A DNA stretch of 64,000 nt. Source: Halichondria panicea. Lineage: Eukaryota. Positions 47,068-54,763 of this stretch are shown piece by piece. The DNA lies in the NCBI RefSeq assembly GCF_963675165.1, contig NC_087392.1, forward strand, positions 78,022 to 142,021, given 5' to 3'. Below the pieces are notes generated by a model. It had not been told where the DNA came from. It saw only the letters and a program-made list of their open reading frames with translations, and made no database searches. Every line of letters begins with the position of its first letter. Position 1 is the stretch's first letter. Made by a program: the position numbers and the translations under genes.

Positions 47068-50000
47068 TCAAGGCTGAGAGGGGTGCTGAGTACTTGAATT
47101 AGAGAGTACGTGGAAATCTGTCCGTGAGGAGTTCAAGTCAGGAGGGGGTCCCGGTTGGCCGAATATGACTGAGGCAGGAGGATAAGGCATCATCTGGTTC
47201 ATCGTGACAGGTACAGAGTTCGAGGAGTGGAGGGTAGACGGTGTGTACACAGGCTCTGTGTATCGTATAGATGGTTGAGAGGACTGCCCCTGAGGCTGTG
47301 CGTACTGCCCCTGAGGCTGTGCCCCCTGCTGGTAGTTAGCCACAATCTCTTCACCTCGTGGCTGTTCATTCGAGTGGACGAAATCGGCTCCTTCAAGAGG
47401 TTGTTGTAATACTCTCTCAAAAATCTCTTGAACAGGCGTCAACGTTTCCGGAGGGTTGGTTAGTGTACTGATCGAATTGGAATTGATAATTTCAGAAATA
47501 AATTCGGCAGGTGATTGAGTTACACTGTCAGAAACTTGAAAGGTGAGCGGTGTGGCATCAGCAGTTTGATCAGTCAGTGGGCGAGACTCGATGATGGGTT
47601 GCATGGGACGAGGTTTATCACTAAAGTCCGTAAGAATGTCATCACTGCTGGCTCGAGACGAGAGAGTTGACGACTGAGATACGAATTTGCTTCCAGCGCT
47701 GCCATTGCTCCCAGTGCTGCTTGCAGTCGAGGGATAGCTATGCAGAGCACGAGTATCAGGTGTGAGATATCCAGAGCTACCAGTGTGACTACCGAGAGGG
47801 TACGGAGGATCGGCCACCTCAACAACAATACAACCATCACCCTCGTTTCCAACTTGCTTCTCAACATCAGTAGCACCATTTCTCACAAAGCTTCCTCCGC
47901 CCCCTCCACCACGCCCACCACCTCCACCGGAGTAGCCACCCCCACCACCGCCACCCCAGGAGCCAGCACTACCTCCACCACCAAATCCACCGTTTCGACC
48001 GCCCTTGCCTCCACTGAGAAAACTATCAGCTGTTGACGCATTCTTCAATGCTCCGGCTCCACCATATCCCCAGGGTGGGCCAGTGAATTTAGCCAAGTCA
48101 GCATCTTCACCAGCCTCTCCGTTGCGACCACCTTTTGCGCTTTCAAGACCGAGACCATCCATTCCATCGACTTCAAGACTAGCATCAGAGCCGTTGTAGT
48201 CGCCATCGTCTCTTCCACGAGTTCCCCCACCTCCCCCGGCAACAATCAGTAGATTCTCCTGTATGTTGGGAAGAATGGAAAATGGAGGTAAAATTATGAC
48301 AACAAAGTGTGAGAACACAACAATAGTTACATGAATGAAAGCAAGATAAGGGATCAGAATACAAACATTTCCTTTAAATACAAATGTTTCAATAACTTGC
48401 CTGAGTGATGTCATTGAGTGCCACAAAGGAACCTCCCCCACCTCCAGAGCTGTACTCGTGTCGTTGAGACATACCCCCACACAGGAAGATGAGAATGTCG
48501 CCTTGCTTCAGAGAAAACGTGGCAGAAATAATAGCTCCCTTCCCTCCAGTTCGATTCTGGCCATCAGTAGCTTTAGCTCCTTGAACAGTGATTCGGTAGT
48601 GGGCACTCAGAGGTATACAGATGCGATGTATGCGTTTCGTATACTCAAACATCACAGGGAAATCGACACATTTTGCCTTGACTGATTCGCTCCACATACC
48701 CCAGCCAGCGTCGTTTTGGGAGCGCACTTTAAACCTGTATGTGTATCCGGGGCAGAGGAAATCGACGTACGTTTTCAATTCTGTTCCAGCCACTTTCTGG
48801 AACTGTGGCTCAGTCTGGGAGAACTTGAGCTGATCATGTGATCTCTTTAAAACAGTGCTGAGATATTTGTCAAGCTGCTCAAATTCGATTTCAAAATGCT
48901 TTGCTTCACAATTTTTGCCCGTTTCCCAAGAGAGAGAGAGGATGTTGTTTTTGTTAGGGGATGGATTAGCGTGTAACTCAGTGGGCGTCTGCCCCCCACA
49001 CACAGCACCCAGGGACGAAAGCTTTTGGACAACTTCTGGTGAGATTACTAACGGGATTTCATGGCTTGTGAGTGGATTGAGGAGACTGCGGTCCTCCGCG
49101 AGTATCAGCGTTTCCATATTGTCAGCGATGGAATGATAAGAGTTGAGGAAATCGTTGTCGTCAGCTGACGTGAGACTGCTGAGTGCATCGTGGGCTTTCT
49201 TGAATGACTCACTCGAGGCTTGGATGAGAACAAGTTGCTGCTCTAGACATCGGGTACGATCAGTATACTGCAAGGGGGAGCGATAAATGAATATCAATCA
49301 TTTATCAAGAGAGTTGATACATAAGGCTTTACAGTGCATACCACATTCCTTATTAGGCACACAGTAATATGCCACATTCATAGAGACAATACTGATATCA
49401 GGAATTCCCACTTCTTGGTAATCAATACAAGTACATCTGTACATACAGGGACAGGCCTTAGTGCAGGATGTGCTAACATCTGAGGACACACTGAAACCAC
49501 TCAATAACAGCTGTTCCCACACGCAAAGTGAACACACACACACACACAGTACCTCCTTATCCACTTGATTCAGTAGCTTTTGCTGTCGGGACTGTATTCG
49601 GCTGATAATCTCTGCAAACTGACTAGAAATGTTAGCTTTAGCAGTAGAAGCTGACGGTCCTAGCTGCTTGAGTATGGCATCAATATTAACTTTTGAGGCA
49701 GCTAAACTTCCGATGATGTTCCCTCCTGTCTGATACAGTCTCTGGACACTAGCACGCACCTTCTTGGCACATTCTGGAATCAGCTCGAAATGTTCAGATC
49801 GAAATATCCAATCAGATTGCACTTCACAAGCGTTGCAAGCAAACTCTTTGCGGCTCTCAGAGTAGTAGACTGCCCTTCTATCTCCGTGGCGATTACAGGG
49901 TACAAAGGTCATGAGTGCAGGGACTTGGTTGGCCTGGTAACGACGGTGGCGTTTAACAGGTCCAAAGTTGCGTTCGTGTTCCAATTTGTCACATTTCTCA

Positions 50001-50497
50001 CAGAACCTGTAGTGGAATCCAGGCTGGCAGTCAATGCATACCATGGTGGTGGGTTGCTCATGGCACACATCACAGAGGGGCTGCTGAGATACAGTGTCCT
50101 GACAATCACCACGTCGCGTTTGGAGGATCTCAAACAGAGCCACGTTGGGAGGTAGTTGAGTGATATCAGGGTGTCCTATCGGGTGTAGCTGAGCACATAC
50201 AGGACACTTGACCCCCCTGGCCATCATCATGTTTTGTAGACATCTGGTGCAGTGAGTGTGTCCACATCTCAATATCCGAGGGACATGGTTAAAGTCTTCT
50301 CCGTACTCCTCGTTGCAGATATCACACTCGAGAGTCTGTAGGACCTGTTGGTTCTACAGAGGCACGCACAGAACAGTATGATGATGTAACAGAGGATACC
50401 TTCACATTATAAATGAGAGTTATTTATAGCTAACGCCTATCTGTACAATACTAGGTAACCCTTCACTCACTGCAGGAGCGTCTTGTTCACCCGACAT
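47068..50497 (-). CDS. TRIM-like E3 ligase (RING, two B-box-like zinc fingers, coiled-coil, FN3) fused to an ALK/LTK-type TNF-like + glycine-rich (polyGly-II) domain, followed by a long S/T/Q/P-rich tail; paralog A
   Basis: Exons in plus coordinates: 50471-50497 (MSGEQDAPA, then a gtgagt donor); about 49554-50355 (NQQVLQTLECDICNEEYGEDFNHVPRILRCGHTHCTRCLQN..CPVC = RING; PLCDVCHEQPTTMVCIDCQPGFHYRFCEKCDKLEHE and ..FACNACE = B-boxes; coiled-coil); 48408-49297 (coiled-coil, FN3 ..YTYRFKVRSQNDAGWGMWSES.., then YRITVQGAKATDGQNRTGGKGAIISATFSLKQGDILIFLCGGMS..SSGGGGGSFVALNDITQ); a GC-AG intron; 47068-48262 ([71 protein letters not shown].. then a low-complexity tail). The glycine-rich part aligns with the human ALK glycine-rich domain ([100 protein letters not shown]). 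Confidence 0.75.
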
Positions 50498-54000: not shown

Positions 54001-54763
54001 TCGACTCTCTTGAGCAAAGAGTCTAGCTCAGTCCGTGTCTTGATGATGGCCTCCACCTTGTCTCGTATGAGCTGCATTAGACTGGGTACGTCATTGCGGA
54101 CTGCCTCCACCGCATCCTCTATAGGAATGTAGTGATCCTCATCAGAACACACACCACTGCGTTTGCACTGCTCACAAGCAAACTTGTTACTCTGAGGAAC
54201 AAACATATAATTAACACACTGGCATTTAGTAACAAGTAATGTTGAAACAATGAACGGACACTGGTAGCTATCACAACCTTAGAGGAGAAGAGGAGGCATG
54301 GTTGGTTAGGATGGTCGGGACACATTGGTACTGGAGTGTTGATACGAACAGCTCCTATGGCCTTTGGTTTGTGATCCTTGACTGGCCCAAACGGTCGACT
54401 GTGCTCCCTCTCACAGCACGAGGCACAGAACATAAACCCAGTGGGTAGACACTGGAAGCAGATGTGAGTAGCAAACTCCTTGCGGCAGTTTTGACAGATG
54501 GATTTCTGCGGAAGAGGTAGAGGATGGCGGACCGTCTTGTCTGGTTCTACTTTAATCGCCGCTACATAGTTCATGATGGTGATGTTGGGTACATGAGGGT
54601 CGTGTGTCACATGACTGCATTGCGGACAAGCCACACCCTCTATGTTGCTGCACTTGTTATCCAGACAGCTCTGACAGAATGTGTGGCCACAGCCGATGAG
54701 GAGTCGAGGTTGCCTCTCACCGCTGGTGGTGTACTCTTCCTTACACATGGGGCACACCAACAT
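51016..54763 (-). CDS. TRIM-like E3 ligase (RING, B-boxes, coiled-coil, FN3) fused to an ALK/LTK-type TNF-like + glycine-rich domain; paralog B, which ends right after the glycine-rich domain
   Basis: Exons in plus coordinates: about 54210-54770 (AAMLVCPMCKEEYTTSGERQPRLLIGCGHTFCQSCL..CPQC = RING; SICQNCRKEFATHICFQCLPTGFMFCASCCEREH = B-box); about 53913-54206 (SNKFACEQCKRSGVCSDEDHY.. coiled-coil); about 52890-53040 (coiled-coil); 51705-52470 (FN3 ..YEIRYTPVEEEDSD..KKYGFRIRSLNIAGWGIWSQP.. then YRITARGAKAADGDVRKGGRGGIIEATFQLTK); 51016-51565 ([129 protein letters not shown]). The 5-prime-most coding exon is not resolved, so the start is given as the Met inside the RING exon. Confidence 0.7.
52536..52850 (-). 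mobile_element. Inverted-orientation copy of the dispersed 300-bp repeat family, inside an intron of TRIM paralog B
   Basis: It is the reverse complement of the gattttctgaaagcttagaa..ggcccgtttcaaatttg..gaatttggaccat modules. Confidence 0.8.
53164..53548. mobile_element. MITE-like element (385 bp) with about 26-bp terminal inverted repeats (ccgtatatcttctaagttatcggaca / tgtccgataaattagaagatatacgg), flanked by a TA duplication (Tc1/mariner-type)
   Basis: The TIRs and flanking TA are read directly. The interior holds at least 5 tandem GTGTCCG(G)-n-ATTAGAA motifs. Confidence 0.65.
53611..53918. mobile_element. MITE-like element (308 bp) with a perfect 22-bp TIR (cagtagaacctcgattatccgg / ccggataatcgaggttctactg), flanked by TA; internal TCGATTATCCGG repeats and two GCGCATGCGC palindromes
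   Basis: TIRs are at 53611-53632 and 53897-53918, with TA at 53609-53610 and 53919-53920. The palindromes are at 53722-53733 and 53773-53784. Confidence 0.7.

Follow-up and report, generated by a model that had tools for sequence, protein, structure and literature searches.

Two tandem TRIM-type genes of the sponge Halichondria panicea continue into a TNF-like and glycine-rich module of the ALK/LTK fold

The window analyzed in this study is a stretch of 64,000 nucleotides from the demosponge Halichondria panicea (assembly GCF_963675165.1, contig NC_087392.1, positions 78,022 to 142,021 of the forward strand), and all coordinates are counted from its first nucleotide. It contains two adjacent minus-strand genes, copy A and copy B, whose products begin as TRIM proteins, with a RING, two predicted B-box-like fingers, a predicted coiled coil and an FN3 domain, and end in a TNF-like (TNFL) plus glycine-rich domain (GRD) module of the ALK/LTK type. 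Splice models were made by joining the minus-strand open reading frames (ORFs) between 47068 and 54823 at canonical splice sites (Table 1); even before joining, these ORFs matched RING, fn3, and, weakly, ALK_LTK_GRD in Pfam. The introns of copy A are GT-AG, GT-AG, and GC-AG, the GC donor having the consensus sequence GCAAGT, and the last junction of copy B is in phase 2. The conceptual protein of copy A is identical to XP_064404140.1 (“uncharacterized protein LOC135349535 [Halichondria panicea]”), that of copy B to XP_064404144.1 (“E3 ubiquitin-protein ligase TRIM36-like”, Halichondria panicea), and a 5.8-Mb scaffold carries both RefSeq genes. An independent annotation pipeline thus chose the same exon junctions, GC-AG included. 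A preliminary description of this DNA had placed a tandem pair of minus-strand genes at these positions, with a GC-AG junction in copy A, and both statements were borne out; structure prediction with AlphaFold2 gave predicted local distance difference test (pLDDT) values of 94–96 for the residues flanking that junction.

In both copies, FN3 and the first strands of the TNFL part are encoded by a single exon (ORFs 48389-49297 and 51703-52515), so that the first ~50 module residues in copy B, and ~85 in copy A, share the exon of FN3. The in-frame continuation from FN3 into an ALK-like block, as previously proposed, is therefore a property of one exon in each gene. From RING to GRD the two full-length proteins are 33% identical, and they are old tandem paralogues and not the products of a recent duplication. 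The intron positions had been said to differ between the copies. This holds for all of them but one, a phase 0 intron within the coiled coil that is common to both.

The RINGs of both copies scored above the Pfam cut-offs and retain all eight C3HC4 zinc ligands; among PDB sequences, the RING structure of TRIM32 matched that of copy B (E = 9e-10). The two Cys/His clusters between RING and coiled coil are, from their B-box-like spacing, probably divergent B-box-like fingers, and are the weakest of our domain calls. In copy A this region matched Pfam ANCHR-like_BBOX (E = 9.5e-4) and zf-B_box, both below cut-off, and in copy B the second finger is interrupted by an intron (54277-54192). Residues 4-295 of copy B were collinear with residues 13-302 of the RING, B-box, and coiled-coil (RBCC) structure of TRIM28 (6h3a, E = 5.4e-7), and the B-box/coiled-coil structure of TRIM3 matched the corresponding part of the protein. 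For the coiled coil, Pfam TRIM_CC fell just short of its cut-off of 30 in copy A (26.3 bits, E = 7.3e-6), and Pfam gave no TRIM_CC match in copy B. The domain series given in the preliminary description consequently stands for RING and FN3, both above Pfam cut-offs; the B-boxes are divergent and not significant in Pfam, and the coiled coil is indicated by the TRIM28 and TRIM3 alignments in copy B and by a sub-threshold match in copy A. No COS family was found among the Pfam matches at E≤0.01 in either copy. A motif conserved in the family (…LG-A/S-VGGG) sits just before FN3. Pfam detected no SPRY domain in either copy; the C-terminus is instead occupied by the TNFL-GRD module.

The module starts directly after FN3, comprises ~235 residues of which 28–29% are glycine, and contains eight runs of at least three glycines. 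Pfam ALK_LTK_GRD (PF12810) was matched over profile positions 7-210 of 243 (E = 5.5e-3 for copy A), and no NCBIfam model matched the module. The best PDB sequence match in phmmer searches was the ALK-ALKAL2 fusion 7ls0 (E = 0.015, with a large bias correction); the motif pairs that had earlier been quoted as aligning residue by residue with human ALK were all present in this alignment. An exhaustive HMMER search with the copy B module against 1.84 billion representative proteins yielded 717 relatives at E≤1e-3, including 32 at E≤1e-30, and most matches spanned the whole module. Among 88 relatives that were scanned, 44 matched PF12810 at E≤1e-3 (best 3e-15), and individual homologues found at E≤1e-13 with the copy B domain scored 26–65 bits on PF12810. 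As these homologues pass the Pfam threshold, membership of the superfamily is transitive. When a 62-member family profile was run against PDB sequences, the only matches besides FN3 proteins were ALK (E = 4.3e-7) and LTK (E = 1e-6).

AlphaFold2 models of FN3 plus module were confident for both copies, with a pLDDT of 84.2 and a predicted template modelling score (pTM) of 0.87 for copy B, and a pLDDT of 85.7 and a pTM of 0.89 for copy A. In both models a set of strands is followed by ~120 residues nearly devoid of helix and strand, confidently predicted over most of their length, and then by two closing strands. The predicted topology is that of a TNF-like sandwich with an inserted glycine-rich subdomain. 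In Foldseek searches against PDB the top 19 matches were all TNFL-GRD (TG) domains of ALK or LTK (E = 5e-9 to 8e-7). On the basis of the profile search and the homologues, the assignment of the module to the ALK/LTK TG fold is secure. The principal claim under study, that two TRIM-type RING ligases continue in frame into the TNFL-GRD module and have no secretion signals, is upheld by the RefSeq-identical gene models, by the ALK/LTK profile matches, by the Foldseek matches, and by a relative in which the entire architecture is one uninterrupted ORF (see below).

By every available sign in their sequences copies A and B would be cytosolic proteins. The N-termini of both lead directly into RING with no signal peptide, and no 19-residue window reached a Kyte-Doolittle mean of 1.6 (maxima 1.45 and 1.16), in agreement with the earlier statement that signal peptides and transmembrane segments are absent. 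Copy B stops 2 residues past the module, and is the tailless copy. The extra low-complexity tail that had been reported for copy A is indeed present: it is 246 residues long, rich in Ser, Pro, Thr, and Gln, and matched no Pfam family. A comparable tail follows the GRD in a homologue from Dysidea avara (P0001) and, as far as the lengths of the proteins and the position of the GRD in them indicate, in many further homologues.

Table 1. Coordinates of copies A and B, their domains, and neighboring genes in the window.
Feature	Position	Strand	Basis and remarks
Copy A gene	47068..50497	-	4 exons, 961 aa; splice model and exact RefSeq match
Copy A exons	50497-50471, 50353-49553, 49267-48401, 48258-47068	-	Splice model
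Copy A RING (aa 19-62)	50195..50326	-	Pfam zf-C3HC4 28.4 bits, cut-off 21
Copy A B-box-like fingers (aa 103-145, 163-199)	49784..50074	-	Divergent; Cys/His spacing
Copy A predicted coiled coil (aa ~200-345)	49061..49783	-	Pfam TRIM_CC; interrupted by intron 49552-49268
Copy A FN3 (aa 370-473)	48677..48988	-	Pfam fn3 30 bits, cut-off 25; AlphaFold2 beta-sandwich
Copy A TNF-like + glycine-rich module (aa 479-715)	47809..48661	-	Split by GC-AG intron 48400-48259; Pfam, PHROG, AlphaFold2
Copy A low-complexity tail (aa 716-961)	47071..47808	-	Ser/Pro/Thr/Gln-rich composition
Copy B gene	51016..54763	-	5 exons, 699 aa; splice model and exact RefSeq match
Copy B exons	54763-54278, 54191-53991, 53038-52943, 52470-51707, 51568-51016	-	Splice model
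Copy B RING (aa 4-49)	54617..54754	-	Pfam zf-RING_UBOX 34.6 bits, cut-off 25.2; TRIM32 RING structure
Copy B B-box-like fingers (aa 89-131, 146-185)	54123..54499	-	TRIM28 RBCC alignment
Copy B predicted coiled coil (aa ~186-335)	52249..54122	-	Three exons; aligned to TRIM28 and TRIM3 coiled coils
Copy B FN3 (aa 358-460)	51874..52182	-	Pfam fn3 27.1 bits, cut-off 25; AlphaFold2 model strands 10-112
Copy B TNF-like + glycine-rich module (aa 464-697)	51025..51864	-	Split by phase 2 intron 51706-51569
Ordinary eukaryotic neighbor genes	40728-43519 (+), 44462-46447 (-), 19497-21038 (-), 60159-61271 (+)

The same module is found on other scaffolds. Green algae encode proteins in which it stands at the C-terminal end of a BTB-BACK scaffold, the usual place of Kelch repeats, as in Chlorokybus atmophyticus (P0023) and Coccomyxa subellipsoidea (XP_005643233.1, P0226); another BACK-GRD fragment was P0046. 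Algal GRDs are 48–55% identical to that of copy B, or 30–39% without shared glycines, and the Chlorokybus domain (55%, and 39% without shared glycines) is as close to copy B as copy A is. In the eukaryotic assembly GCA_020536535.1 (contig JAHLWZ010001091.1), a spliced gene at positions 6001-8434 of locus L004 encodes a protein (P0105) that combines a GRD with two B-boxes and a coiled coil. Its B-box match was significant and its ALK_LTK_GRD score of 44.9 bits passes the Pfam threshold; neither FN3 nor RING was present in the called product, which is a second kind of TRIM-like GRD protein. TRIM and BTB-BACK-Kelch proteins have their substrate-receptor slot at the C-terminus, and the GRD has been placed in this slot at least twice, on unrelated scaffolds. 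Its occurrence on TRIM, BTB-BACK, and B-box/coiled-coil scaffolds argues for a portable intracellular recognition domain.

Relatives of the module also extend well beyond ALK and eukaryotes. The sponge domains matched phage family phrog_22713 over its full length (E = 1.5e-20, 75 bits; E = 5e-17 with the copy A module) and likewise phrog_7388 (E = 1e-13), and in BFVD many predicted structures of phages and giant viruses matched the module model. The module is not specific to ALK: the phage family scored 75 bits, compared to 20 bits on Pfam ALK_LTK_GRD, and bacterial surface proteins and the green-algal BTB-BACK-GRD proteins were likewise stronger matches than ALK. ALK/LTK provides the best-studied structural reference for what is a much wider superfamily, widespread in phages and giant viruses, on bacterial surfaces, and in green algae. 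The earlier identification of an ALK/LTK module is accordingly correct as to the fold, and too narrow in tying it to these receptors. The bacterial homologues bear type IX secretion system (T9SS) sorting signals, autotransporter domains, arrays of PKD, Ig, or LamG domains, or Listeria-Bacteroides repeats. Among phages, glycine-rich receptor-binding tips of tail fibers are represented by Pam3 gp24 (PDB 7ypx), S16 gp38, and Bxb1 gp33, and by PHROG 22713 and 7388. The receptor-binding tip of the Pam3 fiber has the same TNF-like plus glycine-rich arrangement and resembles nematode ALK (PMC9608196). These phage and bacterial proteins are extracellular adhesins, whereas the sponge module is split by an intron and joined to a eukaryotic ubiquitin-ligase scaffold. 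Joint acquisition of FN3 and GRD from bacteria was considered and found unsupported: ten non-sponge homologues carried Ig, PKD, LamG, or Listeria-Bacteroides repeats and no FN3, which was likewise unmatched in the additional non-sponge homologues that were scanned. As a separate observation, many viral proteins consisting of a GRD only, from phages and giant viruses, are named “receptor protein-tyrosine kinase” in UniProt. Since they match this module alone, the label is presumably an automatic mis-annotation from ALK/LTK.

A search with full-length copy B gave one match, polyglycine words most likely saturating it, and a three-sequence profile with masked glycine runs was used instead. It recovered 81 clusters at 90% identity, mostly ORFs at the level of single exons, from assemblies with megabase contigs; the lineage-specific family that had been suggested earlier is thus large in sponge-derived data, with members in Halichondria panicea and Dysidea avara. 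A relative of 759 residues with the complete RING-to-GRD architecture was encoded by one uninterrupted ORF on five contigs of 2.6–3.5 kb that had been assembled from sequencing runs; AATAAA polyadenylation signals mark the 3′ end, which is consistent with an origin from mRNA. At another genomic locus a RING ORF lay immediately upstream of an FN3-GRD ORF on the same strand. On a contig with two family members no tandem arrangement was seen, one gene only lying within 10 kb.

Comparison of 87 close homologues showed that the glycine runs are essentially invariant, and that variation falls mainly in the loops that join them and in the final strands. These were likewise the most variable parts among alleles and near-orthologues of copy B. 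Per exon, near-orthologues were 85% identical for GRD, 86.5% for RING, and 81–82.5% for FN3, and alleles 94–99% across exons. In ~55% of the 87 homologues cysteines occupy both GRD positions 109 (DG-C-DAS) and 172 (GE-C-GGFGGGG) in the numbering of the copy B domain. Copies A and B lack both, and the pair may form a disulfide or a metal site particular to one subfamily. A DxDxDG-like calcium-binding motif was sought by eye in the acidic loop following (I/V)AGGGGGTRG, and the idea was dropped because the motif was not consistent across the three proteins named.

The closest known architecture is that of the class C-I TRIM proteins (MID1/TRIM18, MID2, TRIM9, TRIM36, TRIM46, and TRIM67), which consist of RING, B-box1, B-box2, coiled coil, COS box, FN3, and PRY/SPRY. 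The sponge proteins have RING and FN3 in the same order as these, with two predicted B-box-type fingers and a predicted coiled coil between them, and a putative recognition domain at the C-terminus. They differ in having TNFL-GRD instead of PRY/SPRY, in the lack of a detected COS box, and in B-boxes too divergent for Pfam. Compared with the TG supradomain of ALK and LTK (PDB 7lrz, 7nx1, 7n00, 7lir; Pfam PF12810), the sponge proteins would be intracellular, having no signal peptide or transmembrane helix, and no Pfam match to a kinase, EGF, MAM, or LDLa domain was obtained in either copy. ALKAL, Jeb, and HEN-1, the ligands of ALK-type receptors, act extracellularly. The green-algal BTB-BACK-GRD proteins resemble copies A and B in that the GRD stands at the C-terminus of an E3-ligase scaffold, where the substrate receptor is expected; like BTB-BACK-Kelch (KLHL) proteins they differ in using a CUL3 adaptor scaffold without FN3, in another lineage.

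TRIM proteins are classified by their C-terminal domain, which can be SPRY, NHL, PHD-bromo, MATH, ARF, filamin, or a transmembrane segment. To our knowledge a TNFL-GRD class is absent from this standard classification, and the sponge genes would add one. RefSeq already contains both proteins, as automatic predictions under names that ignore the GRD. The precomputed Pfam domains on most homologues are fn3 alone or nothing, with PF12810 on few. Names such as “TRIM36-like” and “uncharacterized”, together with the kinase labels on viral proteins, mean that the GRD is both missed and mis-annotated. A literature search that included the RefSeq accessions and the source runs returned no paper describing a GRD on a TRIM or any other E3 scaffold, in line with the preliminary description, which knew of no such architecture; the library searched was incomplete, and this is absence of evidence only. 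Within the same incomplete search, the sponge proteins would be the first case found of this fold acting in the cytosol. Work on the fold has so far concerned phages, where it forms a receptor-binding tip, and the oncogenic kinases ALK and LTK, whose ectodomain binds cytokines through it. The present data suggest that it also serves as an intracellular target-recognition module.

We hypothesize that copies A and B are cytosolic TRIM-type E3 ligases in which the GRD replaces SPRY as the target receptor. We regard this as reasonably probable, although the role is one that we infer. The RING would recruit E2~ubiquitin, and through the coiled coil the protein would dimerize in antiparallel fashion, as TRIMs typically do. 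The TNFL-GRD, at the position that PRY/SPRY holds in the FN3-bearing class C-I TRIMs, would recognize the target, binding its ligand via the variable loops that link the invariant glycine runs. The bound target, or the ligase itself, would then become ubiquitinated. A recognition role is favored by the presence of the GRD in the same C-terminal slot on TRIM, BTB-BACK, and B-box scaffolds, by loops that vary while the glycine runs do not, and by phage fibers, in which this fold is described as the receptor-binding tip (PMC9608196). The parallel algal BTB-BACK fusion makes the idea of an E3 substrate receptor directly testable.

Several points weigh against this hypothesis. E3 activity, dimerization, and ligand binding would all be expected from knowledge of the respective families, and we infer them from there. 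The PF12810 match that had been predicted exists in both proteins, at 20.1 bits in copy B and 17.2 bits in copy A, and thus under the gathering score of 24.5. The polyglycine-II geometry is suggested by superposition of the models on ALK and by the eight invariant glycine runs. The B-box-like fingers score poorly on Pfam zf-B_box, with E = 0.27 and 1.2 in copy B and E = 0.07, below the curated cut-off, in copy A. The 2021 structures of ALK and LTK reportedly indicate that ligand binding by ALK needs the EGF-like domain that follows, and such a domain is absent here. Finally, the proposal that the GRD exon evolves faster than the rest of the gene was rejected, as its identity lies at 81–86% like that of other exons; hence no trace is seen of the arms race that marks antiviral SPRY domains.

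We put forward a broader reading tentatively, as a possibility that is more doubtful than the target-receptor hypothesis. TNFL-GRD would be an ancient portable module that eukaryotes have repeatedly placed in the substrate-receptor slot of cytosolic ubiquitin ligases, on TRIM in sponges, on B-box/coiled-coil proteins in another eukaryote, and on BTB-BACK in green algae; its use in the ALK/LTK ectodomain would have come later. On this view the sponge family is an expanded set of intracellular sensors, for example of microbial or viral ligands, analogous to the SPRY-bearing antiviral TRIMs, and the eukaryotic copies are possibly of bacterial or phage origin. The distribution of the module, which ranges from phages, giant viruses, and bacteria through algae and sponges to bilaterian ALK, is relevant to the origin of the ligand-binding domain of ALK.

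The main alternative to target recognition is that TNFL-GRD serves in oligomerization or assembly, with the TNF-like sandwich packing or trimerizing. Such a domain would drive TRIMs into lattices or bodies of higher order, and another part of the protein, for instance FN3 or the tail of copy A, would confer specificity. TNF-like domains are able to self-assemble, as in TNF and in the Pam3 tail fiber; set against the recurrence of the GRD in the substrate-receptor slot, we consider this alternative unlikely. It is somewhat less likely again that the proteins are inactive ligases with a structural or sensing role, in which RBCC is only a scaffold and the ligand of the GRD is small or not a protein, for instance a glycan, the surface of a mineral or of ice, or a polymer on microbial surfaces. 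The polyglycine-II bundles of springtail antifreeze proteins are flat surface binders (PMC11364801), and the phage and bacterial homologues of the module are located on virion or cell surfaces. However, both RINGs lie above the Pfam cut-offs with their eight zinc ligands kept, and proteins with no secretion signals would not reach external surfaces by the classical route.

Two further explanations concern the reality of the module itself. Its glycine content, the weak single-sequence matches to ALK and Pfam, and the large bias correction in phmmer could all be expected if the glycine-rich stretch were a disordered low-complexity region (RGG- or GAR-like, phase-separating) whose likeness to ALK is compositional. 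Identity to homologues is nevertheless still 38–48% once shared glycines are removed, which excludes an artefact of composition, so that this very improbable explanation is effectively excluded. Least credible of all, and likewise effectively excluded, is a gene-model artefact joining glycine-rich exons from a separate secreted or membrane gene or from symbiont DNA: the nearest non-sponge GRD relatives do include phage and bacterial proteins, and symbiont DNA is frequent in sponge assemblies, but part of the module shares the exon of FN3, spliceosomal introns cut it at different places in copies A and B, RefSeq has the same models, the full-length ORF recurs on transcript-like contigs, and the locus is flanked by ordinary eukaryotic genes (phosphofructokinase, UDP-glycosyltransferase, and a classical TRIM).

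Copy B is further characterized by three short elements with terminal inverted repeats in its introns 2 and 3 (52580-52775, 53151-53543, and 53609-53920), to which much of the extra intron length of this gene is due. Their arms measure 54 nt at 80%, 31 nt at 94%, and 24 nt at 100% complementarity, and the element at 53609-53920 also holds 15-16-nt tandem copies of CTCGATTATCCGG. All three look like remnants of transposons of the miniature inverted-repeat transposable element type.

Elsewhere in the window, a classical TRIM gene is located at 13552-16602 (+), with separate ORFs matching a RING (13552-13953), a B-box (14153-14785, E = 2e-9), and a SPRY domain (16006-16602, E = 7.5e-11). One window thus holds a conventional SPRY-type TRIM and two GRD-type TRIMs. 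The neighbors include a phosphofructokinase represented by two long ORFs, a UDP-glycosyltransferase, and a Ras-like GTPase ORF. The gene immediately downstream of copy A is a single ORF of 661 aa for an FAD-dependent oxidoreductase of the DAO family. Long ORFs overlapping on both strands or in several frames were seen at 6890-8191, 11379-12105, and 30717-31461, which suggests repetitive or compositionally biased coding sequence; the ORF at 30717-31400 showed a weak match to the CdrL_M family.

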